Below, piece after piece: positions 9,137 to 34,010 of a stretch of DNA of 35,631 nucleotides. Origin of the DNA: Pseudogymnoascus verrucosus (taxonomy: Eukaryota). Position numbers and translations under genes: made by a program. The notes beneath the pieces are model-generated. The model did no database searches, was not told where the DNA came from, and saw only the letters and a program-made list of their open reading frames with translations. The stretch lies in NCBI GenBank assembly GCA_001662655.1, contig KV460207.1. One strand, 5' to 3'. Position 1 is the first letter of the stretch. The number at the start of each line of letters is the position of its first letter.

Positions 9137-9853
9137 TCAAAATATCCACTGGCTTGCTAGCTGCGTGTACTGCGACGGGTACAGATCGCTCGGCACCTCC
9201 GTGCTTTTCCTCTTCTTGAAATTATCATAAAACCTCTTTAAAGCCGGGAGCTGGGGATCTTCCAGAAGATCGAGGTTGTAAAGGTTGTTTGAAAACTGCA
9301 ACAGGGAAAATAGGACGCAGTCCGCAATAGTTGAAGCGCCACCTCCAGTCTCGAAACGCACATCGCCGTCGTAGTACTTCTCGATCAGCTTGAGATTCTT
9401 CCTTGTCCATTCCATCGCCATCTTAGCCCCCTCTGGGCTTGAGGGCTCAAGAGTCTCAAATAGACGGGAGCCCTTGTGGCAGGCAAAGCCGTAGTGGGCC
9501 ATCGCTTCGTCAGATAACCCGAGGATACTCCTCATTCGAGCTCTGTCTTCGGCCGAGTCGCCTCTCATGCTAGGTTGTCTCGAGTAGCTAGCTAGCTTCC
9601 TCTGCCATTCTCCGCGAGGGTTGTCACAAATATCTTCGAAGTACTCGAGTATGGCTAGGGATTGCTTGATGAAAGAGCCGTCCGGAAGCCGAAGAATTGG
9701 GGTTGTCCCTTCAGGTTTGCCGGGTGCGCCAGTTTGCATGTCAACTGGTGTAATCTTGATCATTCCTGAGTCAAGGAGACCCTTTTCACCGAGGTAAATA
9801 AGTACTCGGCGAGGATAGACACCAAAGTCGAGAACGTAGAGTTCGAGGGACAT
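9137..9853 (-). CDS. Glutathione S-transferase (GTT2-like fungal class)
   Basis: Intronless 238-aa ORF. GST motifs YPRRVLIYLGEKG, cis-Pro TTPIL, QSLAILEY and N-capping STIADC. Confidence 0.88.
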   Translation of the reverse strand: MSLELYVLDFGVYPRRVLIYLGEKGLLDSGMIKITPVDMQTGAPGKPEGTTPILRLPDGSFIKQSLAILEYFEDICDNPRGEWQRKLASYSRQPSMRGDSAEDRARMRSILGLSDEAMAHYGFACHKGSRLFETLEPSSPEGAKMAMEWTRKNLKLIEKYYDGDVRFETGGGASTIADCVLFSLLQFSNNLYNLDLLEDPQLPALKRFYDNFKKRKSTEVPSDLYPSQYTQLASQWIF

Positions 9854-10411
9854 GGCAGTGTATGTTCAATATAGCAGAGTGTAGATTGCAAATGGATCCT
9901 ATGGTAACAAAGGCATCAGAGAATATGTGATAAAAGCATGTTATTTGTAGATAATTTCTCTAGACTCTAAATAGGTGCGAAAGGTCTCCGACGATACCTT
10001 GGGGGGTGTGTTGTGTTATGTTGTGGGGCGCACTTACACGTACCTTTAGTCACCAACGTCGTCTAGGCCCATCCTATAACCCCTGCAATCCTACACCGAT
10101 ATCTAATACAGCAGAAAATGGGAGGCTATGGGTTCTGATTAGAAATCGGGTCTCGACCATGGAGTATTTAGATTAATAGCTGGTTAAACATTTATCATCA
10201 CACGTGCTCTTAAACGTCTGGACCGAGCCGCTGGTCTGGGTCGAGTACAGGCGAATAGAGAACCTGATAATTTAATCACTAGTCGCTTTGAGACTACGAT
10301 AGATTTAATAGTATTTCATTATGAGCTAATTACCGGGAACTATCTCTTACAGTTTGCGATTTTAGTTCTACATCCAAAAATTCTCACTAGACGACAACTT
10401 AGACGCGACAC

Positions 10412-12985
10412 TTAATGGATGGCCATAACTTCCACAGTGGTCCCCCCTGAAAGTCCTTCTAGATGATAGAGAGGCTCTAGGCGGGCATTACTCTGGAATA
10501 ATATGTAACGCTTAATAAACCATGGTAGCCAGGTTCGAGTCTGATATGCGGCGTGGCGTCTCGTAGGGACCCCGAAGATATAATCCAACTCTTCAAGTGT
10601 ACGTTGCCTACTAACTGTTAGTGAATGCTGGATGCTACTAAGACAAAACTTACTTGGTTTCAGGCAGGAAGAAGAAAATGATAACAAAGGCTACCATGTT
10701 CAGACCAGCATAGAAGCCAAACGCTATAGAATATATTAGCAAGAACTACCAACTCATGTGCTGCTACTGCCCCTACTCACCTCCAGTAGGGCCCATGCCA
10801 CTTAAAATTGAGGGGAACGTCAAGCCAAGGATACTAGAAAGTGTATTGTTGATAAATATCGAGAAGGCGACTCCAATCTCCCGATGGGACAATGGGAAAC
10901 ACTCCGAAGCGTAAACGTTTGGAACAGGCCCAATTCCTAAAAACTGTTAAAGAGGAATGAATCACTGAGTCACGGGAAAACGTACCAGGTGAATATAGCG
11001 CTGTAAATAAGTAAACGAAAAAAGCGATAAGTGGAAGGCGTGCGCTGTTCTCTGCAGGGATAAGAAAGCAGCACCCTGCGGCAACCAAGCACCATGCCAT
11101 ATTTGGGAAAGTAAACAGTAGCAGATTCCGGCGGCCAAACGTATCGATTGTCCAGATAGCAGGAAAGGCGAAGATGAAGTTGACAAGGCCAAACCCAAAG
11201 GAAGCAAGGAGGGTTTCTAGCGTATTGGATCCAGCTTCTTTGAATATCGTGGACGAGTAGAATGACATGATGTTAATTCCTGAGAATTGTTGGGCCACCA
11301 TAACGATCGCACCACCAAGGTTTGCTCGGCGGATTCTAGGTATTGTGAATATCTCTTTAGCGCGTTGGGCCAGCGTTGTGCCTTTGAATGCCTCTTCTTC
11401 CTCGACGAATTGGCAATGTGCGTAGTACTATTATTTTGTTAACATCTGTAATCAAGTAAAACTACTGGGTCGGCTTACGAGATCTCGGGCCGCGATAACC
11501 TCAGAATTGCGTAGACGGCAAAACGATCGGAAGGAATCCTTGTAGCGATGCTTCTTGAGGAGCCAACGTGGAGATTCTAAAATGTCAGTCTCGGAACAAA
11601 ATCGTGAACAGATGGGCATACCAGGGCAAAACCATATCAAGATTACAATTGGTACCGCTGGAGCGAAGGCAGCTGCGAGTTGGAACCGCCAGGCAAGCGG
11701 GCCTATACGATAGAACACGAGATTTGAGCAGAAACCGCTATGATCTGTTAGGACAGCGATGGCTATTGGAAAGGTGAGCAACATACACCAGAATACCAAA
11801 CGCAACAAAAAGCTGGAAGCTCATGACAAGTCCTCCGCGAATGGCAGCAGGGACAATCTCAGATGTCATGATTGGGATGGTTGTCGTCTTGATCCCCATA
11901 CCTGCAGTAGTAAGCATCTCTAGTAACAAGAGAGCCACTGCATAGACATACCAAATCCCATAAGCAGCCGGCAAATCAGTAAACTCCACCAGTTATGTGT
12001 AAAGGCTTGTCCGAGCACTGGAAATATAACGCTGGAGAAACACATTAGCTGTTGCATCGTAACGTGTATTTCGGCACTTACAAGAGGCCAGTAATGAATA
12101 TCACTCCTCGACGACCTACCCAATTGTTCATTGGATCGGCTACCCAGGTACTAAAACAATATTAGCTCAGATCTGCGCAGTAGCAATGGAACCCAGCGAT
12201 ACAAGTTGCAGTGGTTTTGATTAGAAAGGAAAGTGATACAAGGTTATGAGAAGAAATTGTCCTTACCTCATAAGACCTGAGATCCCTGGCCTAAGCTCGT
12301 ATTAGAATAAGCGGTTGTTAAGTTTGGTTACCAATACTCACGCAGCGTTGACGAAGCCGACAAGCCAAGTGTTATTCTCAATGCCAAATTCTTTTGGAAA
12401 CGATAGATTCGCTCCATTTGCGCCGGTGTTGTCCCAGCCCCTATGCAGAGTTAGAAAGGTCATCGCATTTGCTTTCTAGAGGCAGAGACGTACTGGATAG
12501 CCGAGCCAAGTGAGCAGATAGCGACGGTATAGTACAGCGCCCAAGGCAAACGCCATTTGTCTAGATTTGAATTTAGAATTATTATTATGAATGGCAGTAC
12601 TCAACTCACGAGTCTTCTCTTCACGAATCGTGATTTTGTCCTCTTCATCGAGCTCTTCGATGTCTTCAAAGCTCTCTGGATGTTGCGCCAGAAGAGATCC
12701 CTTTCGGAAGACAGACGTTTTATCCTCCAGATCATGTTCCTTGCAGAATGCCGTGACCTGTGCCAACAAATCTGGCTTTGATATTCCTAATAAGGGGTTT
12801 CGAATCCTATGGACTGGTCAGCGAGGTTGCTACAAACGATTAAGGATTACACCGTACTTCGCGTTCACATTGTTAGCGTAGTCATCTCCCACATTGATAT
12901 GGCTGTTAGGTGAAGTGAGCCCTTCGACATGATGAAAGTCTTCCTTGCCATTCTTGACAAGCGATGGTGTTGGAGAATTTGACAT
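10412..12985 (-). CDS. MFS sugar porter, polyol/inositol transporter-like clade; about 14 exons
   Basis: The manually spliced product has QGWDNTGANGANLSFP, GRRG, SEIVPAAIRGGLV, PESPRW, QQFSGIN, DTFGRRNLLL, SECFPLSHREIG and PETK..TLEELD. There are 13 GT-AG introns, including a 24-nt exon at 12267-12290. Confidence 0.92.
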
Positions 12986-13071
12986 GGTGGGCCAGAATTT
13001 GAATGGATGTTGCTATCACGCTCGAAATTGATGATCCTGTGGCCAATACCGGGCCATCTTTATACTTCTCT

Positions 13072-13576
13072 GCGGGGACTTGATAAGCTGGTTATAATCA
13101 TTCCGAATACAGTTACCCTCCCTTCAAATCCGGTACGACTGTCGTCGCCTGCGGGGTTGAGGAATGGAGTGCGGGGACCCCAGGTTTTGGTCGGAGCATA
13201 TCCGGGGTCATGGGTTTGTAGCGCCTCGTTATCCCAGCAATCATAGTTCCTTCAGATTACAATATCAACAAGAGCTGAATGGGCGTCGTCATTCCCACTT
13301 TGACGACCTGCGCAGGCAACGCGGGGGGAGATATCGAGTGGCGTAGAGCTATCCTCCAAATGGATGCATGTACGGAGTGGCCCTGCACAGGCACAGATAC
13401 AATATACCAGAAGGATAACAGAGGAGTTGTGACAATTGGAGTGCCACACACACGGTAATTGCCAGTCACATAGGCCAGACCACCCACCCCTGTCGTGCCC
13501 TGTGTGCTCCATCCTCACGCCCCACTTTACCCCACTTTGCCCTGTGTGCTTCCCTCCTCCCCCCCGCTTACCCCGC
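13072..13576. promoter_or_regulatory. Cluster of CreA/Cre1-type SYGGRG sites in the divergent promoter of the transporter and aldolase
   Basis: GCGGGG at 13072, 13151, 13171 and 13321. Reverse-strand copies: CCCCAG 13178, CCCCAC 13530, CCCCGC 13562 and 13571. Confidence 0.55.
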
Positions 13577-13590
13577 CTTACCCTGTGTGT
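13497..13590 (+). repeat. Imperfect tandem repeat of about 41-42 bp (about 2.3 copies) with a CCCTGTGTG core
   Basis: CCCTGTGTG at 13498, 13540 and 13581, separated by similar C-rich spacers. Confidence 0.75.
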
Positions 13591-13607
13591 GACAACCAGT
13601 CATGATT

Positions 13608-13618
13608 TCACGTGATGT
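13608..13618. promoter_or_regulatory. Palindromic E-box TCACGTGA just upstream of a TATA-like element of the aldolase gene
   Basis: TCACGTGATGT at 13608-13618, CATATAAG at 13633-13640, ATG at 13741. Confidence 0.6.
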
Positions 13619-13740
13619 TACCTGGTAGTTATCATATAAGGAGGCTTTCGAGCTGTTAACAGTAACAAGAAAGAAGTCATCCATTCTCACACATCCTACA
13701 CATCCTCACACAATCTTACATTGGCCTATAGTCATTCAGA

Positions 13741-15046
13741 ATGGGCAGCAATTCTATCACCTGGCTGGAGAAGCTGGAGGAGCAGTGTACGTCCACAACA
13801 AAACAGTTTTATGAGAACGGACATGCTAATTTTACATAGTAAATGTCGACGTTGATTCTATGGATCCGACCTTTGCGAAGAGCCTTCCCTTCAAGCCACA
13901 CAACCAAACCAGCAACCAGTTGTTGGTGAACGAGCAGATGTCCATCCCCGAGAATAAGGAGCTGTTTCTCAAGGCGGTAAAGGAGCGTAAAGAACAGGGC
14001 TGGGAAGCTATCCTCACACGCATTGTATGTTTGCAAGCACTGGTGACAGGTTCTGAAACTAACTCTGCGATTCATAGAGCGTCCTCCTCTGCGCCGAGAA
14101 CATCGATAACATTCAAGGCCGTGTCTTGTTGCAAACATCGCCATTCCACGCATACGACACAGATAAGGTTGTTGAGCATGCCCGCGCATATGCGCGCGAA
14201 TTCGAGAGCGTTGGAATCTCCAAGGATCGATTCTGCATTAAGATTCCTTGCACTGGCCCTGCCATGAACGCTGGTCCTATTTTGCTTAAAGATGGCATCC
14301 GAACACTTGGCACTTCGCTCTTTGGACTGCCACAAGCAATTGCTTCAAGCCAAGCTGGATGTCTGTATATCAGCCCCTACTATAACGGTTAGTTTTCATC
14401 AAGTTAAAATATTTACAGCTTACTAACAGAGTTCGTCCCAGAGGTGCGCGCCCACGCCGAGCTGGCTCTCTGGCCAGATGTCGAAGATCCGGCAACACAA
14501 CACACCATGTCTGCAAGAATGATACAGATACTAGAGACGTACAAACGTCTCTACAAGGAGACAGGAAAGGAACAGCCCATGGTGAAATCCGCTAGGTATG
14601 TCGTTGCCATCTTCCTGCGACTGTGTTATATTCCTAACAGCTCTAGTTTCATCTCTCCTAAGGAAGCAATGGCTGCTGGTGAAATGGGTTGCCACCATGC
14701 CACCATCTCGTCTGATGTACTCACTCAGCTCAGCAAGCTCGACTATGACGGTAGCAAGCAGCCAGGAGAAGGCGTACCAAAGCCCATGCATGCGTACAAG
14801 GGTGCAGGTCCAACCCCCGCCCGACTCTTGAAGCTGGCAAAGACAGACCCACTCGCAGCGGCGAACTGGGATGGCAAGTTGGCTAGCACCGACATAGACT
14901 ACCTTGCAAACAATGGAGCCGAGCTAGAAAAGGCTATCGAGGCGGATCCAGTCACCAAGACCCGCCTGTTTGAAGCACTTGATCTTTTCAAAGGCGGGGA
15001 ATTGCGAAGCAAGGCGGCGATTGAGGAGGCAATGAAACAGGTATAA
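13741..15046 (+). CDS. Transaldolase-family (class I Schiff-base) enzyme with FSA-like active-site residues
   Basis: Exons 13741-13786, 13840-14024, 14078-14387, 14442-14595 and 14647-15046. Motifs VDVDSMD, TSNQ, GRVLLQ, catalytic IKIP, GIRTLGTSLFG..Q, ISPYYN, SASF and GCHHATIS. Confidence 0.92.
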
Positions 15047-15185: not shown

Positions 15186-16330
15186 TTATTGTATGAAGTC
15201 AAAACCACCGTTCTCAGCCCTAGGATGGTTCTGCCCACGAAATTGTGATAAGGAGACACTATTGTTGTATAATAACTGTGTTGAACCGGTGTTGGTATGA
15301 AAAGTTGGCTCGAATAACATATCAAGTGGCCATTCATTGTCAGAAAGCAAATTGTCGAGAAGTTCGCTGTTCAAAGACGTTAGATCCCCAGTCGCAAGAG
15401 AATTGGGCATAGATGAGTATTGTAACGGATTCAATTCCCTTTGTTGTGTTCTAGGATCGTCAGTGTTTGTCTGGAGCGTGTTAAGTGGTAATTGCATTGG
15501 TATAGAATTGGGTAGAGGAGGGGTGGTATCCACTAGACCATTCGTCGGGTTCTCTAATACAGTAGTGAAGTCCGAGTTATCAGGTTGAGTTACGAAATAA
15601 TCGATTTCTCTACCCTGGTCACCCTCAACATCGTCGTATGGGCCATTGTCACCAAATCCACCAGGAAAGGTGCCAAATTCTTCCCGTTCTGCATCCATAA
15701 ACGCCGAAAGCGCCTTTGTTGTTATACGGTGCGGTAGTTGCTGGCTCTCTCCTGGAACGTGAAGATATTGGAGGGCGTTTAGTTGCGTAATAAGTGAATT
15801 GTAATCCGCGAGAAGGTCACGGATTTCGCTAGCAGCAGCAAGGCGGATCGCGCGTTGCTCATTAAGGTACGAGATGCTCTCGTTAACAATGAGAGATTTG
15901 GAAAGCCGACGGGCATGGGCCAGAGGTGGAAGCAGGCGTGCAAGTTCCTATGTGAACACTTAGAAGGAAGCTATTAAAAACATGTAATACATCACCTGAT
16001 GTAAGCCTTCGAACACTGTGCCTGAAAAATATGTCCATCTTGCCAATATAACCGCGTTTATGGATATGCGGCTCTCAGTAAATATTAAGCCAGCACAGGC
16101 TCCAGAAGGCTACCAACAGATCACGGGACAGACTTGGAACCTACAAGAAAGCTTTGATTAAGAGCTTCGCGCCTCTGCTTTTCAATAGAGCGATGTGAAG
16201 CTCGATCCTCGGAAGTAAAGGCCCGTACCCGCTTCTTGGACTTTCGTTTTCCATCTTTTGCCAACAGTGGCTGATCCGATATTCCAGCCCTCCCAGGAAC
16301 CCCCGTTACGTCATTGACTAGAGCCATCAT
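15186..16330 (-). CDS. bHLH transcription factor with an acidic C-terminal region
   Basis: Exons 16330-16145 and 15947-15186. The spliced bHLH reads RASHRSIEKQRREALNQSFLELARLLPPLAHARRLSKSLIVNESISYL, followed by a coiled-coil-like helix and an acidic tail. Confidence 0.88.
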
Positions 16331-17532: not shown

Positions 17533-18717
17533 ATGGCTGGACAATCAAAGGAGGCACCTATCCCTCCTTGGGGCCTCGCGGTCGCTGGCGCGACTGGTGC
17601 AGTCCTTGCCAACGCTCTGGTGTACCCTCTCGACATGTGAGTATCACCGTGCCCCACAAGCCTCCTAAGTCGATGAACAACTCTAATCCTCTTCTGCAAC
17701 AGCGTCAAGACTCGTATACAGGTCCAAGTCAAGCGGAAGGCAACTGATGCTCCCCCTTCCGCGGGGGACCCCGCACACTACGACTCGACATGGGACGCTA
17801 TCACCAAGATCGTTGACTCTGATGGATACGCAGGCCTGTACGCCGGCATCCAGGGGGCCCTGATCGGCGTGGCCTCGACCAACTTCGCATACTTCTACTG
17901 GTACTCCGTCGTGAGGACCCTGTACATGTCGTCGCGAAAGGACACAGCCGCGCCTGGAACGCTGGTGGAGCTGTCTCTCGGTGCGGTCGCAGGCTCTGTG
18001 GCCCAGATCTTCACGATCCCCGTTGCGGTCGTCACAACGCGTCAGCAGACGCAGTCAAAGGGCGAGCAGAAGGGCATGATTGACACTGGGAGGGAGGTCA
18101 TCAACAGTGAGGATGGGTGGACTGGTCTTTGGAGAGGCCTCAAGGCTAGCTTGGTCCTTGTGGTCAATCCAGCCATCACTTATGGTGCCTACCAACGCCT
18201 GAAGGACGTCATGTACCCGGGGAAGGCAAACTTAAGGCCCATGGAGGCTTTCCGTAAGTACTCGTGCTGACACCTGGTTGCCTAGAGGGTTGTTTCTAAC
18301 GAATTCTCCGTTTAGTTCTCGGTGCTATGTCGAAGTCCCTAGCAACTATTGCTACACAGCCACTTATCGTTGCGAAGGTGGGCCTGCAGTCGAAGCCCCC
18401 GCCTTCCCGCCAGGGTAAGCCCTTCAAGAGCTTCGTCGAGGTGATGGAGTTCATCGTCAAGAACGAGGGCCTCCTAGGTCTGTTCAAGGGGATTGGTCCC
18501 CAAATCACAAAGGGACTTCTTGTCCAGGGTCTCCTCATGATGACCAAGGAACGGTAAGATTCTACGCACTCTGTTCACTTTAAGGCGTAGTTACTGACGT
18601 ATATATAGCATGGAACTTCTATTCGTCCTGCTCTTCCGCTATATCCGCAAGATGAGGAGCGAGCAACTCCAGAAAGCCGCCGCGCTGGTGGCCGCCAAGG
18701 CGCCGCTTATCAAATAG
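17533..18717 (+). CDS. ANT1: Peroxisomal adenine nucleotide carrier (mitochondrial carrier family, ANT1/PMP47)
   Basis: Exons 17533-17636, 17703-18253, 18316-18553 and 18609-18717. Carrier signatures YPLDIVKTRIQ, IPVAVVTTRQQ and QPLIVAKVGLQ, plus TNFAYFYWY and LVVNPAITYG. Confidence 0.92.
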
Positions 18718-19289: not shown

Positions 19290-20428
19290 TTAGAATCGAG
19301 CGGGACTCTGAATTTGACCCTCGACAGCTTCATTGGAAGCTCCACCGCCTCCTCCGCCGCTCTGCAGCTGACCATCGTTGATTTGTTGAGCAGCGCCTCC
19401 TCCCGTGCCGCTTCCAGAGGGTTGTCCACCACCAGAGGCACCGCCTCCTCCTGCGTTGTTTCCAGCGGGCTGCTGACCACCAGAGGCGCCGCCGCCTCCT
19501 CCTCCTGCGCCACTGCCGCTCGGCTGTGAGCCTCCCGCGCACGAAGCACAAGTTGGTGCGCCGCCACTAGCTCCACCGCCGCTGGGACTGGCTCCTCCTC
19601 CGCTCCCACTCCCAGCACCTGGTTGAGTGCCGGAGGTTCCACCGCTAGGTGCTCCAGGCTGGGTGCCAGAGCCGCCCTGCTGAGCACCGGGGCTCTGGAT
19701 TTGCCCCTCTCCAGCCTCACCTGCGGCACCTCCCTGCTGTGCACCGGGGCTTTGGATTTGCCCCTCTCCAGCCTCACCTGCGGCACCTCCCTGCTGCGCC
19801 ACAGCAGGATTCTGGACTTGGCCATCTCCCAGCTGTTGTCCCGCACCGCTCTGGGGCTGGCCATCTCCCACCTGAGAAACTGGTGGATCACCGGGAGGAT
19901 CACCACCGCTGGCACAGCTGATGATGTCGATGGTGATCGGCTCGCACTGCGGGGCGATGGACTCATCATATAGATTGAAAAAGTTACCCGAGCGGCATTG
20001 GAAGAAGTTGGTGGAGCCCCTCAAGCCGAGCTTGTTGTTGCAGACGGAAAATCCGCTGGTGGTAATGGCGTTTACCTGGCCAGGAGCGGGGTCGAACTGG
20101 AATTGATGGTTGGACACGATTGATCCAATGCGGCCCTGTGCGTCCGTGAGAACACCGTCTTTCAAGGTGGCTACAAGGCTTCCGGAGGAACCGCACTGAA
20201 TAGAGTTTAGCTTAGTAGGTTCGTTGGCGTTTGGTGAGGGGGACAAACCTGGGCGCGCTTCATCATCCTGGGGGTTGCCGGGGTGGATCCTGACACAACC
20301 TTGATCTGGAAGCTACCCTCAAAGCTGGGCTGGCAACCAGACGAGCCGGCCTGCGGCATCGCAGAACCGTTCACACTGGTGGTGAGGGTAGCAGCTGCGA
20401 GAGCAGCAGCAGCGAATGTGTAACGCAT
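19290..20428 (-). CDS. Secreted PIR-family (Cis3-like) cell wall protein with a Gly-rich tail
   Basis: Exons 20428-20249 and 20195-19290. Signal peptide, a KR site, the PIR Cys domain (LTDAQGRIGSIVSNHQFQFD..GFSVC..FFQCRSGNFFNLYD..PQC) and six DGQ/EGQ PIR-like repeats. Confidence 0.9.
19675..19796. repeat. 57-bp near-perfect coding tandem repeat (19 aa, QQGGAAGEAGEGQIQSPGA)
   Basis: CCCTGCTG recurs at 19675, 19732 and 19789, with nearly identical units. Confidence 0.9.
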
Positions 20429-21894: not shown

Positions 21895-23068
21895 TTATTT
21901 CGTTTTCCAGTCTTTCATCATCAGCCCTCAAGTATACAGTACAGTGGAGTCGGAAATAACATACCGAAAGTAGCCGGCTCTTCCAGCCGTTTGACGACGC
22001 TTACATCATCTCCGATGCTGACGTTGCTGCCAGCTCCCTTTCCCAAATATCCGTATCTTCCAAAGATCGGACTGTACTTGTTGCCCTTATCCACCCTGCG
22101 GTCAGGCATCAACTTCTTCAGCATTGTCCCCTTCTCACCCAGGGCCTGCTTGCCGGTCGAATAGTCGATGTTGATACTGGCACACCGTGCACAGTTGGCA
22201 GTCAATGCTAGCTCAACCTCAACACCATCCTTATTCTCGATATTTATTTGTCCCCATAAATCTTCATACCAGGCACCCTCAGCTCCACTGAGGACAATGT
22301 TGGGACGGAACTTACGGATATCCATCTCCATACCTTCAGGTAGTCGCGATGACGTTTCCGCAAGCGACTCCTCTGTAACAACTAGGAACATGGCAATATC
22401 GGCAAATGTTATACCTGGAGGTCGCCATTCCTCTCCTTTCGCCACGATGCTAGCAGGAAGGTAGGATGAGAGATACCGTGAAACTGAACGGGCTGTAGAG
22501 GCAACAGCACTTTCTGCGGCAGAAGGCCAGAGAGAGCCCAATACTTTCCTCCTCATGGTGCCGATATATGCGAGTACAACCTCATAGCCGAACTGAGCTG
22601 AAAACCAATCGTTGTATTCGGCGCCCATATCATAAGCTCGAGTAGGCGAGTTATACATCACAACGTCGACCATCTCCAAGTTTTCCGTATCTGGTACGAA
22701 CGGTATTGTTATAGTCGTAGGCGGCAGACTGCTCGATGGGCCAGCATACGTGACTGTAAACTCCTCGAGACTATCCCCATCTCCATCACTTGTTTCCACG
22801 AGGGCTGTTTTGAAGAGTGCCATCTCAGTCAGTCTTGAAACGTGCATATTATTGAGCTTCCTCGGCTCATTATCTCCACCCTCCACGCGGAGCAACATGA
22901 ATGTGCGATCATATTGTAAGCCTGTGCCTACTACTGTCGCGGACGACAATGCAATTCCGCGCAGGGATTTGACTGGATAGATGTAAAGCTATTCCAGGAG
23001 TTAGATTGAGTAAATGCCAGTAATTGTTCTGCCTCAGTTTCTGGACGGCTTACTTGAGTGACCTTCAT
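21895..23068 (-). CDS. MOSC domain protein (mARC/YcbX-like)
   Basis: A 15-nt first exon (MKVTQ) splices to LYIYPVKSLRG. Motifs DRTFML, FADIAMFLV, KFRPNIV, EDLW and NCARC. A short last exon 21911-21895 (DWKTK*) is inferred from G|GTATGT..GCTGAT..AAG. Confidence 0.9.
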
Positions 23069-23416
23069 GGTCACAGAGTCTAACCCCACTAGTTAAAAGA
23101 ATAGAAACTGTGAAAATTGTTAAATCGGAGACGGATTGAATTTTAGACTTGAAGAAATTGTTTAGATGTAGAAATAATATATTTGGGCACTGAGATGGAT
23201 CTTAAATATGTTGTGATTGGAGATAAAGCTGACCAAATCTCGGCCTGTGGTGTGGTACGTTACCCCGCGAACGATCACTCCATGTAGGAAAGGGCGCTCC
23301 GCCACCCCAAATCCGGAAGAAAAGAGGCGGGACGCAACTAGACCGCGCGTATCCGTCAGTAATTACGACAATATGCCAGACAAGGATCTCTCAATTACTT
23401 TCCAACAAACTCTAGC

Positions 23417-24229
23417 ATGACGCCCCGTGCACTCACGCCATCCCCACCTCGGGGACACAATTCACCCTCCCACGCATCCAGCCGCATGCCGCCTCCCGTC
23501 AAGAAGCGCACCCTCCTTTGGGATTGGACTTCAGTTCGCGACTCGATCCCTCTCCCCGTTATTCCCACCAATTCCCCCATTTGCGCCTGCCATAATTGGA
23601 ACACATGGGCTCCACCCGATCTCCCCGCGCACGTCCCCTTTCGGCCGATGTTCCGCACGGTCGGGCAGCTACAGTTCCCTGAGTTCGAATATGCTCTCAG
23701 CCAGCCATACCCGATCATGCACTTCCTCAACGAGCCGGAGCGCGCAGATCTGACACCGGAGAGGGCCTGTGAGTTGTGGTTTGAGAAGATAGTCCCTCTG
23801 AGGCAGGAGAAGGGGACTAAGATTGTGGGACCAGCGGCGGCTAATGATCACCCCGGAACGGTCTGGTTGGATACGTTTATGGCTCTTGTTACGGCTCGGG
23901 ATTCGAGAGAGCGGCCTGACTTCCTCGGCCTACATTACTACGGCACTATTGCGGCTGAGGCTATAGGGTATTTGACGGACAGACATAGGAAGTATCCAGA
24001 CTTGCCAGTGAACATCAGCGAGATCGCGAGCATTAGCCGCGACAGGAGGCAGGTTGAGAAGTTTAGTAGGGAGATCGCAGAGTGGGCTGATAGGACGGAG
24101 TGGGTGGTAGAATATGGGTTTTTTGGGATGATGCAGGAGTGTGCGGATGAATTTGTGAGCCCTCAGGCACAGCTCATGGATAAGAAGGGGCAATTGACTG
24201 GATTGGGAAGATGGGTGGTTGGCGTCTGA
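23417..24229 (+). CDS. Glycoside hydrolase family 128 (Asl1-like beta-1,3-glucanase domain) without a signal peptide
   Basis: HNWNTW, VPFRPM, FLNEPE (acid/base), DFLGLHYY, ISEIA (nucleophile) and WVVEYGFFG. The true start may be the second ATG at 23486 (MPPPVKKR). Confidence 0.85.
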   Translation: MTPRALTPSPPRGHNSPSHASSRMPPPVKKRTLLWDWTSVRDSIPLPVIPTNSPICACHNWNTWAPPDLPAHVPFRPMFRTVGQLQFPEFEYALSQPYPIMHFLNEPERADLTPERACELWFEKIVPLRQEKGTKIVGPAAANDHPGTVWLDTFMALVTARDSRERPDFLGLHYYGTIAAEAIGYLTDRHRKYPDLPVNISEIASISRDRRQVEKFSREIAEWADRTEWVVEYGFFGMMQECADEFVSPQAQLMDKKGQLTGLGRWVVGV

Positions 24230-24460: not shown

Positions 24461-24733
24461 AACGCCCTTAAATTTGCTAGGAACTAAAAACTTGAGCTTA
24501 AGAGAGATTCTATTAGCTTTAACTCATTGTACTTTTGGCCAACCCTAAAAAACCCCTCAGCGGAAGCATTAGCCTATAAGCTACCCCGCATAACGCTAAA
24601 AAAAAGCTAGTGGAGAGCTTGGAGTGCGGTATCGCTATCGTACCAGAAGATGGCTTATCGCACACAATTTCCCCAGCCCCTCTCTTCTAAACTACCTATT
24701 GTTAATGATCTCAATTCTCAGAGTTCGCTCACC

Positions 24734-26774
24734 ATGGCAGCCTCTTCGGCTCCAGGCAGAGAAGACGCCATAATGGCCGTCGAACCAGGGCATGTCGTGA
24801 GACCTGGATCCCGGGCCTCGAGCAGCAATTCGACTGACCAGGACGGGTCATTTGCACGAAACAGGACGAGGACGAGCGCAGCGAGTGGGAGAGCGCCTGC
24901 GTGGTGGAAGGTCAGGCTCTTCCGGGGGATGGTGGAAGATGTAAGAAGGAGAGCACCCTTTTATTGGAGCGATTGGACAGATGCTTGGGATTATAGAGTC
25001 GTGCCAGCGACAGTATATATGTACTTTGCCAAGTAAGTATAGCCCTCGCCTTGCCAATCGCTCCGTAGAGCTAACTTTCTCCCACAGTATTTTGCCAGCC
25101 CTAGCCTTCTCTTTGGATATGTTTACGAAAACCGATATGAGCTACGGAGTCAATGAAGTGTTATTAGCGTCTGTTCTGGGGTCCATCGTCTTTGCCGTTC
25201 TGGCTGCGCAGCCCCTTGTTATTGTCGGCGTTACGGGACCCATCACGGTGTTTAATTACACGGTTTACGATATCATTACCCCTACGGGCACGAATTTCTT
25301 CGCTTTTATGTGCTGGGTTTGCCTCTGGTCACTAGTCATGCATTGGGCGCTTGCATTTACGAATGCTTGTAACGGGCTACGTTACGTCACGCGCTTCTCC
25401 TGCGATATATTCGGTTTCTACGTCGCATTTATATACATACAGAAAGGCATCCAAGTCCTCACGCATCAGGGCTACGATGAGGCCTTCTATCTATCCGTCA
25501 TGGTATCTCTACTTGTGCTTGGCTTTGCCTACGGTTGTGGCATCGTTGGCGAAAGCACCATGTTCCAGCATTACATACGAGTCTTCGTCAAGGACTACGG
25601 CACGCCGCTCACAATCGTGTTCTTCACTGGTTTTGTCCATATCGGACGCATGGATGGCGTCCAGCTACAAACCCTTCCAACCTCAAAAGCCTTCTTCCCA
25701 ACAGCCGACCGAGGTTGGCTCATCCACTTCTGGGATATCTCTGTATCTGACGTCTTCCTCGCCATTCCTTTCGCTATCCTCCTCACCATCCTCTTCTACT
25801 TCGACCACAACGTCTCATCCCTTATAGCACAGGGCTCCGAGTTCCCCTTACGAAAACCTGCTGGCTTTCACTGGGACCTCTTCCTTCTTGGCCTCACCAC
25901 CGGCGTCTCGGGCCTCCTTGGAATCCCCGCCCCCAACGGCCTCATCCCCCAAGCCCCTTTCCACACCGCCTCTCTATGCGTTACCAAGATTGTCCCTGCC
26001 TCCGAAGACAACGACTCCAAAGGCCATCCAACAGCAGTTATCGACCACGTCGTGGAGCAGCGAGTCTCGAACCTTGCCCAAGGCCTTCTAACCCTAGGCA
26101 CTATGACCGGCCCCCTCCTCATTGTCATCCACTTGATCCCGCGCGGTGTTCTCGCTGGCCTCTTCCTCGTCATGGGTGTCCAAGCCCTCGAAGCAAACGG
26201 CATCACGCTCAAGATTCTCTTCCTTCTCCGTGACCGCGCACTGACGCCGGCTTCGGACCCGCTACGACGCGTCAGCAAGCGCGCGCTTTACTACTTTGTG
26301 TCACTGCAGCTGCTAGGTTTTGCAGCCACGTTTGCGATCACGCAGACGATTGCTGCAGTGGGGTTCCCGGTCTTCATTTTTGCGCTTGTGCCGCTGCGGA
26401 CATGGGCGATGCCGAAGTGGTTCACGAGCGAGGAACTAGGGCTGATGGATGGGCCGACGGCGAGCGAGTTCACGATGGTGAGTGTGGGTGGGAATTTTGG
26501 GGAGGGGGATGGAGAAGGCGGTGGTAGCGGAGTGATGGCGAGCGCGGAGGATACGGCGGTTAGTAGCGATGAAGAGCTCGCGGAGAGGGGACAGCGGGTG
26601 GGTGCTGTTGCGACGAGGGATTTTGGGGATAAGGCACACCTCGGGGGAGGGGAGAGGGTCCAGCATCATGGAGTTGTTGGGGAGGAGATGGAGATGAGGA
26701 GGCTGAGTGGCGCAGCGAGGAGGAGGAGTACGGCGAGTAGACAAGGGGCACGTGCGGTGGACATAGATCGGTAG
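24734..26774 (+). CDS. BOR1: Borate exporter / SLC4 HCO3- transporter family
   Basis: Exons 24734-25032 and 25088-26774. Motifs RRAPFYWSDW, YFANILPALAF, QPLVIVGVTGP, TRFSCDIFG, FYFDHNVS, GFHWD, NGLIPQAP and VVEQRVSN. Confidence 0.95.
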
Positions 26775-27189: not shown

Positions 27190-29991
27190 TCACGCCGGAG
27201 TCGTCGGTGTCGGCCCCTCAGGCGGCACATCCTTGACCTCATCCGGGAACGGCGGCGGCGCGCTCTTCTTGTCCCCAGTACCAAAGTACTTCTCGAAGCT
27301 CTTGTGGTCCTCGAACGGCCTCTTTCCCAACAGCCTCACCATGTCCTCACGGCCCAGGACCTCCTTCTTCAGCAGCTCCTCGGCAATCAATCCGACCTCA
27401 TCCTTCTTCGCCTTCAGCAGATCCGAGCACTGGGTGTACGCCTCATCAATGATGCGGCGCACCTCAGCGTCGATGGTCTGCGCTGTCGACTCCGCGAATG
27501 GCTTGGTAAGCTTGTTTGGGTCGTCGGCGAAGTGCAGGGGGCCAAGTTTGGGAGACATGCCCCACTTCGTTACCATAGCCGTCGCCATCTTGGTCACCTT
27601 GTCGAAATCGTCACTGGCGCCGCTGGTCACAGTCGGGAAGTGCAGCTCCTCGCTCACGCGGCCACCGAGCGTCATAGCCATGCGGTCCATCAGCTGGTTG
27701 ACGTTCATCAGGTAGCGGTCGCCGGTGGGAAGGTACTGGGCGTAACCCAGCGCGCCCTGACCACGGGGAATGATGGAGACCTTGAGGAGCGGGTCGGCGT
27801 ACTTGAAGTACCAGCCGCAGATTGCGTGGCCGGCCTCGTGGTACGCGACGACCTTCTTCTCCTCGGGGTCGAGGACGAGGGACTTCTTCTCGAGACCACC
27901 AATAACGCGCTCGATGGCTTGCTCGAAGTGGGTCATCATGACAGATTCGGCGTTGGTGCGAGCAGCTGGTATCAGTTAGTATATGTTAAAACGACAATTG
28001 TAGGAAGAGGACTCACCAATAAGAGCTGCCTCGTTACAGCAGTTGGCAATATCGGCACCAGAGAATCCGGGGGTGAGAGTAGAGAGGCGTCCAGTCAAGT
28101 AATCGATATCCTCGTTCGTGACGATCTTTTTCAGGTGAACCCTGAAGATCTGCTCGCGACCAACCATAGTGGGGCGATCGATGGTGATGTGTCTATCGAA
28201 GCGGCCAGGACGCATGAGAGCCTTGTCCAAAACATCCGGTCTGTTCGTACCCGCCAGAACAACGACTTGATCCTTGGTGTTGAAGCCGTCCATCTCCGTG
28301 AGGATCTGGTTCAGCGTGCTCTCGCGCTCCTCGTTACCGCCTCCAAAGCCAGACTTCTCTCTCGACTTACCAATCGCGTCGATTTCGTCGATGAAGATGA
28401 TACAAGGGGTTGTCTTGCGGGCCATGGCGAACAGGTCGCGCACACGCGACGGACCGACACCGACGAACATCTCCATGAACTCGGAACCACTGACGCTGAA
28501 GAATGGCACGCCGGACTCGCCGGCCGTGGCCTTCGCCAACAGGGTCTTACCGGTTCCGGGAGGCCCGGACAGGATAGCACCGCGGGGAATCTTGGCGCCT
28601 AGCCTCGAGTAACGCTCTGGCGTCTTCAGGAAGCTGACGAACTCCATGATCTCCAGCTTTGCCTCGTCCATGCCTGCGACATCGGCGAACTTGACCTTAA
28701 TATCTGTCTCGTGGTTGAACTTCTTGGCTCTGCTCTTGCCCATGCCGAACATTCCGCCCTGTCCACCGCCACCACTTGCACCACCAGCCATACGGCGAAT
28801 CATGAAGATAGTGACACCGACAATCAGAAGCGTTGGTCCCAAGGAGATGGCGAGGTCCACAAGCGAACCCTCCTTAGTATAGCTGACCGGTATCCTCTCC
28901 CTGCTCGGGATAGCAAGCTGGTTTTGCGCCTCCTCGAGGTGCTGCTCGAAGGATTGCACGGACCCAATTGTGAAGTAGTAGTGGAAGTTAGGTTGCGCAG
29001 CTGGTGACTCTGGGTAGGCGCGCGCCGTGGCCTCGCGGTGCAGCACGACGCGCACGCGGTTCTCGTTGACGACGACAAGCTTCTCGACGAGGCCCTTCTC
29101 GAGGAACGTCGTCCGGAACTCTTGCCATGTGATGTCGCGCGAGTTCTCGCCCGGCACGACCATTCTGTAGAGCATGTAGGTTGTGAACGCACCTAGCATG
29201 GCAGTGTTGAAGTCCAGCTTGAGCTCGAAGGACTTAGGCCCGCCCTGCCCGCCGCCCTGCTGCCCTTGCTGTCCCTCCTGCTTGCCGCTCTTGTTCCCGC
29301 CAGGTGGCGGAGGTGCCTCGATCGGTTCCTCCTGCCCAGCCGGAGGAGCGAACTCGCTAAGTGACTTGCCCTTTGCTTCTAGTTCGATCACAATTTTCGC
29401 GAGGTTGAGCATGATCGCCGCCTCTTGTGTGCTCAACGGCTCTCCTCCCTTGTGCTTCTCAAGAATCCCGAGCAGTGCCTTCGGATAGCCCTTCTCCTTT
29501 AATAACCTCGCCGATACCTCCGATGACCAGGACTTTGGGAATGAAAACCCCTCCTTCAGCTCCTCAGTTATTCCCTCCAGCGCCACCGCATCCTCAGGCG
29601 AGAGCATCACTATCCCATTCCGCATGAGCTTCTGCGCGTTCTCCGCCGCCTGCCCATGGGCGAGACTCCCATGGAGAAATCCCAAATCCATCTCTTTCTC
29701 CGGGCCGGGGGTTGGCGGCTCAACCCCCTCCTCCACCTTCTTCACCTCCCCCTTCTCCACCTTCTTCTCCCCAGCCTCCTTATCCCCATTCTCCTTCTCC
29801 ACCTTCTTCTTCCCCCCCTCCTCCATCTTCATCCAAGAACTCCCACTCGTAAACCCCCTAGCCGCCACCATCCTCGCGCTCAACGGCACCGCACCCCGCC
29901 TCCCCAATCCATGCCTCGCCGCTATCCTCGTCGTCGCCGCCGCCACTCCCAGCCGCGCAATGCGCCCCGGCGTCCGCAAGAGCATGCTCAT
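27190..29991 (-). CDS. Mitochondrial m-AAA protease subunit (Yta12/Afg3-like FtsH family)
   Basis: Exons 29991-28017 and 27965-27190. Arg-rich presequence, two TM segments, Walker A GPPGTGKT, Walker [19 protein letters not shown] and zinc motif HEAGH. Confidence 0.95.
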
Positions 29992-31004
29992 CGCTCCTCC
30001 GTGCTCGGCCCGCGCGGGCTCGTCGTCAGCGCCGTCGTGTGCGGTCTCTCGTCGTTTTCAGCGGTAGTAATCGTGCGTTTCGTGTGGTTTATCTCATCCG
30101 GGACGTGTGCAATTCGGGAAGCGCACGCGTGTGTGTTTTGTTGGTTGGGATTGAGTGGTTTGCGCTGTGCAGGGGACGGGTTTTTTGGGGTCTGCTTGAT
30201 GGGTATGATGGTCGGGATGTAGTAGCTTCTCGCTAAATTGTTAAGAATATTCCGCGTAGCACCCGCCGATGCCTTGGGGAGAGAATGATTACATAATCAC
30301 GGAGCTACGTAGTTGCCATACCTCGGAGATACCTTACTGCCGGTCTTGGAAACCAACTTTTTGCTCTTAGTAGTTGTGCCAAGTATGTAGAAGTTTAAAG
30401 AAGGGGTTGTGGATAACAGCATTAATCATAGGAACTATGGTTTAAGAAAAAGCGTTTAATCGCTCAGAGTTGCAATTCGCAAGCTAACTCAGAAATGGAA
30501 CTAAAGAGATTATTCCCATTAGTTTAAAGTTTAAATTCCTAAGATCAATTCCCAGGCTCATGCACGCACTCTTAGTCTCTCACTTTTGCTCACTCATTCC
30601 AAGTCAACGCCCGTATGGTCCTCGCAGTAAGTATGTATAAAATCATTTTCAGATTCTCATAGCTCCATCTACAGCTCCCACCCCCTAGCACACCGCCCCG
30701 AACAATAACCTCGCCCCCATCGCGAAGCAAAATTTGAGTGAAGATCCGTTTCCCATCCCATCATACCCACAGCCCTCATAAATATCTCCTGGAAACCCCA
30801 TTCATACAGAGCAAATGCTCACCCTCGTCAAAAATCCCAAGCCAAAAACTCTCCGAAAACAAAAAGCAAAAGCCAAAAGAAGCCAGAGAAAAGACGAAAA
30901 GCATCCCGCTCTCCCCAACACCATCCCATCCCATCCCATCCCATGCCCTCTAATATAATACATTACTTCCCCCTCCCTCTCCCCCTTTTCAACAAAACTC
31001 ACAA

Positions 31005-33766
31005 TCACCTCTCCACCGCCCCCGGAACCCCAGCACCCCCAGCACCATCACCCATCCCCACCCCACCGCCCGTCAAATCCGCCCAATCCCACTCCAGTGT
31101 CATAGGCATATTCCACAAATCCGGCGGCACAAACGGCTGCTGGAAGCTCTGCGGGTTAATCGGGGAATGCGGATCCGCCCCCGACAAGTATCTACTCATA
31201 TCCGGGAACGGCACTCCCCCACCGCCACCACCATTCGCCGCCGCCGCCGCAGCAGCAGCCGCATTAGACAGATGTTCGAAATCCGTGGCGATCTCATGGA
31301 ACCCCGCATCAGACATCCAACTCATATCCTGCGCCTGCCCACCCCCCCTCCCATCCGCAGCCGAGTACGACGTCACATCCCCATACCGAAACTGCGGCGG
31401 GGTCTGCCCGGCACTACTGCTAGGCGGGGGTCTCGCAATCGGCGGCCTATTAACGCTAAGATTCGGGAGCACCTCATCGAGTTCCTTGCGCTTTCGGCGC
31501 GTAGTCGTGTCGCGATCGGCTTTGTCGAGGACGACGCGGGCGATGCGCTCGAATTCGGCGCAGACGCCGAGCATGCGTTTTACGCCTGTGTTTTCGTCTT
31601 CGCCGGCGAGCATGGAGAGGAAGTTCACGACGAGGTTCATGAGCCGGACGTCGGAGCGGGCGCGGGGGTCTTGGGGGTTTTGGAGGATGTTGCCGAAGAG
31701 GGTCATGAGGGCGGAGACGGGGTAGTAGAGGATTAGCCTGTGGGAGGGGAGGGTTAGTTTGTGTATTGTGATGTGGGGAAGGGGGGGGGGGTGATTGGAG
31801 GGGCTTACCAGACACAAGAGAAATCGCCTTGGGGAACGTATTTGACGAGGTGGATTGAGGCGCGTGCGGAGGATACACACAGCGCCGCGGACGAGAAGAC
31901 GCGCGGGTTAAGCGGTCGCGAATTCAGGCCCTGGATGGCGAAGTTGGAGAGTCGGCTTGTCCAGTAGCCGTGGTGGATGGACATGCGGTGGATGGTGGTG
32001 AGGCAGTTGTAGTATCCGAAATGTAGCACGACGACGTGGAGGATGAGTGGAGTATGCGATGCCTTGATTTCGTGCTCGGGGCGGAAGTCGATGGGGATGC
32101 TGTCTTTCCACTCCTCGAGCTGCTGGTCTAGCTCGCCGATTGTGTTGAGTAGTTCGCCGTCTGACTGTTTTGAGGCGCGCGTCGAGTAGAGCTGGGTGTA
32201 TACCTTGCTCACGATCGTGGAGAACTCGCACATTAGTCGGAACAGGTTGACCTTGCCCTTACCATCCGCCAGCGGGATGTTACCGATGTTGTCCTCTGGG
32301 TCCGCGCTCGGAAGCTCCACATTCATATCATCGTCATCCTGTACGGGCGGCCGCCCGAAGCGCAGGCAGATGTCCTTGTCGAGCATATACCCAATCCAGA
32401 AAACGCGCTTGCGCTGCTCAATCTCAATTGGGTTGAGGTTGAAGCCCGACCCGCGCTTGTGCAGCCCGATGCTGTGCGACAGCCTGATGGCGGATGCGAC
32501 CAGGAGGAACGACGGCTGCGGGTTCGGCGTGCCTTGCATGAATAGCGCCATGCCGAGGAGCGCTTGTACGCTGAGAAGATCGGTGTTGCGCATCGTTAGC
32601 TCGGTGTACACCGCCATGGCGTTCTTGAGGTAACCCCACGCCTTCTGGTCTTCCTCTTCCGGGACCAGATTGCTCATAACCCGTAGGCGATGCGCAATGG
32701 CGAGGGCGATATTCAAACTCGCCCACCATCCTGATCCGTCATATGGGTCGCGAGAATATTGTCGCTCGACGAGGTGCATGAAGGTCGGTTGGTGGAAGAG
32801 AGGGAACATGCAGTTGAAGTTCTCAAAGAAGTCCTTCAACAGAGACAACGCCTCTGCCTTCTGCGGAAGCTGGAGATATATGCGCCGCTCGAAGATATCA
32901 CCAAACACCTCCGGCTTCCAGTACACCCACTTATTGTCATCGACCGTCGCCTCCGCGATCATAGTCTGAAACGACTGATCGCCCGTCTTCTCATTCACCC
33001 ACTGTATTCCCTTGGGCGAGAATATCGAGAACCCCGACGACGACCCAATATACCTCGTCTCACCCTGATCATTAGTAACGAGCGAGCACATCAAATCCGA
33101 CAGCTCCTCCACCTCCTCCGCGGTCTTCTCCCCCACCCTCCGCTCCGACCCCCCCATCGTCCCCGGCGTGGGCACACTATTCGGGCTGTCGGACTCACCC
33201 TCCGCGCCCGGCGTCCCCCTCAGCGTCGTCGCCTGCGACGGCGACGTCGGGATCGAATCAGAGAAGTGACTCGCATCCCTCTTCGCAGACTCGCGACTCG
33301 CCAAGCGTTTCTCCAACATCCCCAAATCCGTACTCCCCCCATCATCCTCATTCAGCAGCCCCGACAACCTCAGCAGATTCTCCATCCTCCCCAGCCTATT
33401 CTCCAGCCCCTCAATATACTTCGCCCCCTTCGGCGGACTCCTCTTCTTCTCCACCTGCGTAAACACGCACTCGGTCTTGTAGTTTGTGCAATGGCTGCAC
33501 GCGGGCATCTGGCCATCGCACTTGATCTTCTTCTTCCGACACATGTCGCACGCGCGCGCGATGCGCCGCCGCTTCGCCTCGTTGCTGTCGTCGAGCAGGG
33601 TTCCCGCGTCGCCGAACATCCCAGAGGTGAGGCCCATGCCCTCGAGGCCGGTGAGGATGGGTGAGCCGTCCGCGGCGTAGGAGCCGAAGATCTGCGGCGG
33701 CGGGTCGTGGTTTAGGTGCGCGGAGGCGTGCATGGGGTAGGTGTGATGGTTGGGGTTGGGAGACAT
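31005..33766 (-). CDS. Zn(II)2Cys6 transcription factor with Fungal_trans domain, resembling the AtrR/FTF2 group
   Basis: Exons 33766-31809 and 31737-31005. [29 protein letters not shown]; middle homology region [32 protein letters not shown]-terminal [13 protein letters not shown]. The ortholog assignment is from memory and the start codon is uncertain. Confidence 0.88.
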
Positions 33767-34010
33767 GGTGGTCGTGGTCGTGGTTGCGCGTGGCGCTGTG
33801 GGTGGTGGTGGTTCTGTCGTCAGTCGCAAGACGGATGGTGGATGTGGGATGGTGTGAGCATGCCAGTCTCTCAGACCGGATGAGTTGGGATTATATGTGG
33901 CGGGGTTCGTGGTATTTCGTTTCTCGTTCCTCTTTCGCAGATATTATCGATCTTGATCTCTCGCCGCCGTTCCCATATAATTATTTGGTAGTGGTTCCCT
34001 CTCTATCTCT

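Follow-up and report, generated by a model that had tools for sequence, protein, structure and literature searches.

The 35,631-nucleotide (nt) stretch of Pseudogymnoascus verrucosus contig KV460207.1 (assembly GCA_001662655.1) that we analyzed, hereafter the window, holds at 13741..15046 on the plus strand a five-exon gene encoding a 364-amino-acid (aa) protein with the TAL_FSA fold. It lies between a divergently transcribed sugar-porter gene and a convergent gene for a basic helix-loop-helix (bHLH)-like protein. The encoded protein has lost both basic residues with which the Escherichia coli transaldolase TalB holds phosphate and resembles fructose-6-phosphate aldolase (FSA) at key catalytic positions; it may be an aldolase for an unphosphorylated ketose.

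The gene model is supported by a match to PF00923 (TAL_FSA) and by an NCBI hypothetical protein of the same length from a Pseudogymnoascus sp. sister strain (P0001), which has the same exon joins and is 100% identical over exon 3. The exons lie at 13741-13786, 13840-14024, 14078-14387, 14442-14595, and 14647-15046, and all introns between them are GT..AG, each with a CTAAC-type branch site. Two introns interrupt codons in or beside the sites of interest: intron 3 (14388..14441; 54 nt, GTTAGT...CTAAC...AG) splits the Glu181 codon into G14387 and AG at 14442..14443, and intron 4 (14596..14646; 51 nt) splits the Ser232 codon into AG at 14594-14595 and T14647. The remaining codons to which we refer, all on the plus strand, are those of Gln96 (14132..14134), Lys132, the Schiff-base lysine (14240..14242), Leu154-Gly155-Thr156 (14306..14314), Ser176-Pro-Tyr178-Tyr-Asn with the opening base of Glu181 (14372..14387, with Tyr178 at 14378-14380), Lys229 (14585..14587), and Ile234 (ATC, 14651..14653). 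The codon positions that an initial annotation of this DNA gave for Glu181 and Ile234 agree with this codon map.

That annotation read both substitutions across predicted splice junctions, for which support differs. The junction between exons 4 and 5 (14595|14647) is crossed by a pair of contigs in run X17, a soil metatranscriptome, while the sense junction 14387|14442 was not seen among the four sequencing runs compared with the locus. Both joins are made in P0001. Moreover, in a metagenome locus that is 89% identical (L001), residues 78-364 form one unbroken frame that reads CLYISPYYNEVRAHA and PMVKSASFISPKE and so carries SPYYNEVRAHA and KSASFIS, i.e., both substituted sites; a second metagenome locus (L005) has the same unbroken frame over residues 78-293. 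Intron 3 is absent from both relatives. When we enumerated all in-frame GT-AG alternatives around introns 3 and 4, position 181 was only ever Glu, Asp, or Gly, and no alternative yielded a homologous Arg or Lys at 234; none of the enumerated options would restore a basic residue.

Assignment to the TAL_FSA family is secure at the level of sequence profile and predicted structure. P0001 scores 106.1 bits against PF00923 (gathering cutoff, 27), and exon 3 alone scores 66.3 bits. The AlphaFold model has a mean predicted local distance difference test (pLDDT) value of 95.9, and its top Foldseek matches are TalB-type transaldolases (E about 1e-19; target-normalized TM-scores, 0.79-0.86). The structural match is full length to chains of 310-333 aa and partial to FSA chains, for which query-normalized TM-scores were 0.44-0.47. 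The curated profiles that separate the two enzyme classes are both missed by a wide distance: the classical transaldolase profile TIGR00874 (talAB) scores 82.4 bits against a cutoff of 396.2, and the FSA profile TIGR00875 (fsa_talC_mipB) scores 53.1 bits against 245.95. Judged by these profiles, the fungal protein falls outside both curated families.

Alignment with TalB pairs Asp21 of the fungal protein with TalB Asp17, Asn41 with Asn35, Gln96 with Glu96, Leu154 with Asn154, Tyr178 with Phe178, Glu181 with Arg181, Ser232 with Ser226, and Ile234 with Arg228; Lys132, Thr156, and Ser176 are common to both. The Schiff-base lysine on strand 4 that is typical of TAL_FSA enzymes is thus present, with Asp, Asn, Thr, and Ser as its partners. 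Aligned by HMMER, the fungal protein and E. coli TalB chains show no gaps over residues 105-181, where the numbering is identical, and ISPYYNE falls on ISPFVGR and VKSASFIS on VMGASFRN. These alignments bear out the substitutions of Arg181 by Glu and of Arg228 by Ile that had been proposed from the sequence, and show that Ser226 is kept as Ser232. According to PMC3962226, Arg181, Ser226, and Arg228 hold phosphate or sulfate in TalB; only the serine of this trio survives in the fungal protein. In FSA the phosphate region comprises Arg134, Ser166, and Lys168, as given in PMC13259622, which confirms the assignment of Arg134 and Lys168 made in the initial annotation; their equivalence to TalB positions 181 and 228, where the fungal protein has Glu181 and Ile234, rests on the motifs of that annotation and on this paper.

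We asked how far these substitutions extend among relatives. A homolog search with exon 3 returned, among 335 candidates, 254 longer proteins at an E value of ≤1e-5, and every one that has a source name comes from a fungus, either an ascomycete or a basidiomycete. Matches in the ESM Atlas are ascomycete clusters only, automatically named "Transaldolase"; sources call the homologs "transaldolase," "transaldolase B," "aldolase," or "hypothetical protein." The Pseudogymnoascus protein shares 83-88% identity over exon 3, and 69-74% over the full length, with its orthologs in Mycena and other Agaricales (P0009-P0018 and others). Such identity is unusually high between phyla and points to very strong constraint or else to a transfer of the gene among fungi.

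From the 120 listed exon-3 homologs we aligned 86, leaving out most fragments and several near-duplicate Fusarium entries. Position 181 is Glu in 56, Phe in 16, Leu in 8, Val in 2, Asp in 2, Ser in 1, and Pro in 1; it is acidic in 58 of the 86 and is Arg or Lys in none. Position 234 is Ile in 69, Leu in 11, Lys in 4, Val in 1, and Arg in 1, so that an aliphatic residue (Ile, Leu, or Val) stands there in 81 of 86. Ser232 is kept in 70. A HMMER scan of 1.84 billion representatives then found 947 proteins at an E value of ≤0.001 (73 at ≤1e-30), from which came 36 of the 37 full-length sequences in a second alignment that reaches down to 27% identity. In that alignment, read by eye, Arg occurs at 181 in a single protein (P0380) and neither Arg nor Lys occurs at 234. 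On these alignments, the losses of basic residues are a feature of the whole fungal family and not of one gene.

At the catalytic positions, Asn41, Gln96, Lys132, Leu154, Thr156, and Ser176 are each found in all 86 homologs, Asp21 in 82 (the other four are gapped there), and Tyr178 in 85; Gln96 and Tyr178 are also invariant in all 37 full-length sequences. Of two residues that define a classical transaldolase, Glu96 has been replaced by Gln throughout and Phe178 by Tyr in all but one of the 86 homologs. Via TalB, the fungal Gln96, Lys132, Thr156, and Tyr178 align with Gln59, Lys85, Thr109, and Tyr131 of the FSA catalytic set, which is given in PMC13259622 as Asp6, Asn28, Gln59, Lys85, Thr109, Ala129, and Tyr131. 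As far as residues can tell, Gln96, Leu154, and Tyr178 make this the active site of an FSA-type aldolase rather than that of a transaldolase. This residue evidence argues against the pentose-phosphate transaldolase role that "transaldolase" and "transaldolase B" imply.

The best PDB sequence match of P0001 is 3kof, the TalB double mutant F178Y/R181E (E value, 2.6e-17), followed by 4rz6, TalB E96Q/F178Y. These engineered enzymes share its fold and subunit size class, and three of their introduced residues, Tyr178 and Glu181 in 3KOF and Gln96 in 4RZ6, are natural in the fungal protein. They are, however, laboratory mutants that keep Arg228 and Asn154, whereas the fungal protein is a natural one, 23-24% identical to them, that differs by Ile234, Leu154, an insertion of ~45 residues around 263-318, and its own gene neighborhood. 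What these mutations do in TalB is instructive: F178Y alone turns the transaldolase into a dihydroxyacetone (DHA)-dependent aldolase, and F178Y/R181E has a higher affinity for unphosphorylated D-glyceraldehyde and was the best variant for that acceptor (PMC3962226). E. coli FsaA (TIGR00875, 1L6W) has Asp, Asn, Gln, Lys, Thr, and Tyr residues that are matched by fungal Asp21, Asn41, Gln96, Lys132, Thr156, and Tyr178, but its subunit is only 220 aa long, and decameric in 1L6W, compared with 364 aa and a TalB architecture here; it also has Ala129 where the fungal protein has Ser176, and keeps the phosphate ligands Arg134 and Lys168, both of which the fungal protein lacks (PMC13259622). Classical transaldolases (TalB and fungal Tal1/Nqm1; EC 2.2.1.2) have the TIM barrel, Lys132, the Asp, Asn35, Thr156, Ser176, and overall length in common with the fungal protein, which departs from them by the changes of Glu96 to Gln, Phe178 to Tyr, Asn154 to Leu, Arg181 to Glu, and Arg228 to Ile. 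A further TAL_FSA member, the 6-deoxy-6-sulfofructose transaldolase BmSF-TAL (8BC3), is a weak sequence match (E value, 5e-5); we take it to belong to a short bacterial subfamily and to be a transferase, whose substrate is not a phosphate ester but carries an anionic sulfonate.

The genes on either side offer a second line of evidence. Upstream and divergent from the aldolase gene lies a multiexon gene (10409..12817, minus strand) for a sugar porter of the major facilitator superfamily (MFS), recognized by a Sugar_tr match; a near-identical porter (P0122) scores 319 bits against Sugar_tr, and relatives of about 600 aa have been named sugar/inositol or polyol transporters. The two genes share an intergenic region, 12818..13740, that is a putative bidirectional promoter. 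Downstream and convergent lies the bHLH-like gene (15186..~16330, minus strand; the upper bound is approximate). Its HLH match at 16148-16330 is weak and below the cutoff (E value, 0.0058), the open reading frame (ORF) at 15186-15947 covers helix 2 and a coiled region, and its ortholog in another locus (L020) matches HLH with an E value of 2.5e-6.

We surveyed the neighborhoods of 32 metagenome loci (L001-L032) encoding aldolase relatives; these loci carry Glu181 or align unclearly at that position, and the synteny counts apply to them rather than to the Phe/Leu181 subtype. A divergent, colinear porter gene was found upstream in 20 of the 20 loci with at least 1,400 nt of upstream flank (the flanks of the other 12 are too short), or in about 16 distinct loci once near-duplicates are merged (L002=L003, L009~L010, L016=L025, L023~L024). 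The convergent bHLH-like gene was found downstream in 20 of the 21 loci with at least 1,000 nt of downstream flank; the one locus without it (L006) has a flank of just 1006 nt. Adjacent NCBI locus tags show the same pairing of aldolase and porter in Cadophora gregata (ONS95_008547/8), Penicillium chermesinum (N7468_003909/10), and Aspergillus hancockii (BBP40_011770/1), and basidiomycete porter relatives are close (66-70% over one exon). Porter, aldolase, and bHLH-like gene are a conserved three-gene module.

Outside this core, the flanks vary from locus to locus. In 10 of the 32 loci, chosen for their long flanks, the 85 ORFs of 130 aa or more that we scanned beyond the core include no conserved kinase, dehydrogenase, or isomerase, and Pfam detects no kinase near the aldolase gene in the window. 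The sole recurring noncore genes were a short-chain dehydrogenase/reductase (SDR) in the related pair L017/L019 and an alpha/beta-hydrolase just beyond the porter in L026 (1687-2520, minus strand) and L027 (1580-2662, minus strand). Three Penicillium gene models (P0143, P0147, and P0152) fuse hydrolase and Sugar_tr domains; these may be merged neighboring genes. At the corresponding place in the window, beyond the porter, is a glutathione S-transferase (GST)-like ORF (9137-9865, minus strand).

We also considered E-box regulation: a CACGTG site lies at 13609, 132 nt before the ATG. We rejected this idea because the motif is not enriched: the 18,181 nt of 16 porter-aldolase intergenic regions hold 6 sites, where about 4.4 would be expected, and these fall in 5 of the 16 loci. 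By eye, the promoter region at 13500-13600 also contains C-rich direct repeats, CCCCACTTT(A/G)CCC and CCCTGTGTG, each present twice within ~100 nt.

RNA from a further run, X1, also covers the locus. Two X1 contigs, one free of mismatches and the other from a relative, join 14375/6 to 14427/9 and so skip 51 nt (14376/7 to 14426/7) whose ends, CT..AC, are GT..AG on the minus strand. There the sense branch site (ACTAAC), reverse-complemented, becomes a GTTAGT donor, and the sense donor in the same way becomes an ACTAAC branch site; the contig from the relative matches splicing at the next donor, 4 nt along. The skip thus resembles a "mirror" intron removed from an antisense transcript. The X1 contigs are unspliced through sense intron 4 and part of intron 1, and intron 4 is also covered unspliced by run X18, which is probably DNA. 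We read the X1 contigs as antisense RNA, which speaks neither for nor against the sense gene model; it may have arisen by read-through of the neighboring convergent gene, that for the bHLH-like protein.

What might the enzyme do? The reading that we favor, with a confidence only slightly better than even, is that it is a class I (Schiff-base) aldolase on a long, TalB-type scaffold and that, as the one committed step of the module, it cleaves an unphosphorylated ketose brought in from outside. The porter would import the free sugar. Lys132 would form an imine with the C2 carbonyl of the ketose, and Tyr178, Gln96, and Thr156 would hold the catalytic water and shuttle a proton, the roles of Tyr131, Gln59, and Thr109 in FSA. 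We infer lyase rather than transferase chemistry: the three-carbon unit would not be handed on to a second sugar but would leave as free dihydroxyacetone or something closely similar. At its far end, the substrate would meet Glu181 and Ile234 in place of TalB Arg181 and Arg228; with these residues at the distal end, a phosphate ester should be disfavored and a neutral or possibly cationic tail accepted. Dihydroxyacetone and the neutral aldehyde product would be taken over by housekeeping enzymes, and the bHLH-like protein would be the likely regulator. A conserved sugar-porter neighbor, with no conserved kinase, fits a free sugar as the substrate. Both FSA and TalB prefer the (3S,4R) configuration, on the basis of which candidate substrates by analogy are D-fructose, L-sorbose, D-xylulose, sedoheptulose, and 1- or 6-deoxy forms. 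An amino group, too, might be accommodated by Glu181, in line with the amino-sugar that the initial annotation named as an option.

Several observations weigh against this reading. The presence of a porter next door is silent on the direction of transport and the identity of the sugar. Since the locus shows up in run X1 as RNA that is antisense or unspliced, the sense gene is only putatively expressed in this organism. Not all relatives share the residue pattern: 28 of the 86 homologs have a hydrophobic residue or Pro, not Glu, at 181, and 5 of the 86 have Lys or Arg at 234, all five with Leu at 181. Together these two departures indicate that the family may have more than one substrate. The five (P0024, P0051, P0079, P0102, and P0064; four from Aspergillus and one from Verruconis) have the motif LPW[YF]H, and this small group could represent a sub-branch whose substrate is different and perhaps anionic. 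Finally, the family has conserved basic residues of its own (Arg152, His185, His201, Arg206, Lys229, and Arg291), which could form an alternative anion site. The earlier claim of a nonphosphorylated substrate is partly supported: the splice joins, the residues across homologs, the precedent of R181E in TalB, and a porter without a conserved kinase in the flanks scanned all favor it, but it is qualified by the five homologs that are basic at 234.

The last of these observations leads to the alternative that fares best, although we consider it unlikely: an enzyme for phosphorylated or otherwise anionic sugars, either a transaldolase of the pentose-phosphate type or a fructose-6-phosphate aldolase paralog, with the phosphate held by other basic residues. 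The six family-specific residues are near-invariant and have no TalB counterparts at the aligned positions, and retention of Ser232 in 70 homologs and of a basic residue at 234 in 5 would fit the same idea. But position 181 is acidic in most of the family and basic in none of the 86, R181E reduces phosphate preference in TalB (PMC3962226), and the protein scores far under the curated cutoffs of both phosphate-using classes (82 versus 396 bits for transaldolase; 53 versus 246 bits for FSA). The gene is partnered by one for a sugar porter, with no kinase conserved in the flanks scanned. As for Lys229, which the initial annotation thought could partly compensate for the lost arginines, it is indeed near-invariant (85 of 86), but it aligns with TalB Met223, and in the predicted strand 227-231 of the AlphaFold model it is opposite in parity to Ser232 and Ile234, so that it probably faces away from the pocket.

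A second alternative, distinctly unlikely in our view, is that the enzyme forms C-C bonds in a biosynthetic or detoxifying role, joining dihydroxyacetone or hydroxyacetone to a neutral, possibly hydrophobic, aldehyde. Part of the family would have a hydrophobic distal pocket, with Phe, Leu, or Val at 181 in 26 of 86 homologs (motif N[FL]PW[YF]H) and an aliphatic residue at 234 in 81. Leu154 also resembles FSA Leu107, which presumably occupies the position of fungal Leu154 and TalB Asn154. FSA favors hydrophobic donors (PMC3962226), and an alpha/beta-hydrolase gene stands beyond the porter in two loci (L026 and L027) and is fused to it in three gene models (P0143, P0147, and P0152). Against this, the sole constant neighbors are a sugar porter and a transcription factor, we found no conserved polyketide synthase, nonribosomal peptide synthetase, terpene synthase, or tailoring gene around the aldolase in the window and the 10 loci, and the Glu181 type is the majority.

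It is very unlikely that the protein is a true transferase, i.e., a transaldolase that moves a dihydroxyacetone unit between unphosphorylated sugars and never releases it. It does have the scaffold and length of TalB, and Ser176 is as in TalB in all 86 homologs; the acid-base pair that separates the two activities, however, is of the aldolase type (Gln96 and Tyr178), and the F178Y change is by itself enough to alter the enzyme class of TalB (PMC3962226). That the protein is a catalytically dead structural or regulatory relic, as loss of TalB Glu96, Asn154, Arg181, and Arg228 might suggest, is highly improbable given that Lys132, Thr156, Ser176, Asn41, and Gln96 are invariant in the 86 homologs (with Asp21 in 82 and gapped in 4), that the replacement residues are those of FSA, an active enzyme (PMC13259622), and that conservation across phyla is very high (69-74% over the full length versus Mycena).

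The other genes of the window that Pfam recognizes are not syntenic with the module in the other loci. They encode a glucosidase II beta subunit (1-1747), a mitochondrial carrier (17677-18270), a PIR cell-wall protein (19290-20312), a MOSC protein (21921-22988), a glycosyl hydrolase core (23363-24229), an HCO3-/borate-type transporter (24611-26774), an FtsH-like AAA protease (27976-30057), and a Zn2Cys6 transcription factor (31805-33943).

A literature search, with subscription journals outside its reach, found no description of this fungal family or module. The combination appears to be new: on the evidence of sequence, a TAL_FSA fold with FSA-like chemistry on a long scaffold, with no phosphate site and within a conserved sugar-uptake module. 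Aldolases that use dihydroxyacetone and unphosphorylated aldehydes are sought for the synthesis of sugars and iminosugars, a field that, as described in PMC3962226, has relied on bacterial FSA and engineered TalB. The fungal family naturally bears the residue solution chosen by the engineers of TalB, together with loss of the second arginine; a large natural family in which both phosphate-binding residues are gone is a new source of enzymes and a natural test of engineering rules. If aldolase activity on unphosphorylated ketoses is borne out, its members would be ready-made dihydroxyacetone-dependent aldolases for phosphate-free sugar synthesis. For the fungi themselves, the strictly conserved porter-aldolase-bHLH module predicts an undescribed carbon-source pathway: tentatively, and at somewhat less than even confidence, Ascomycota and Basidiomycota would have in it a compact route for using a free ketose without prior phosphorylation.

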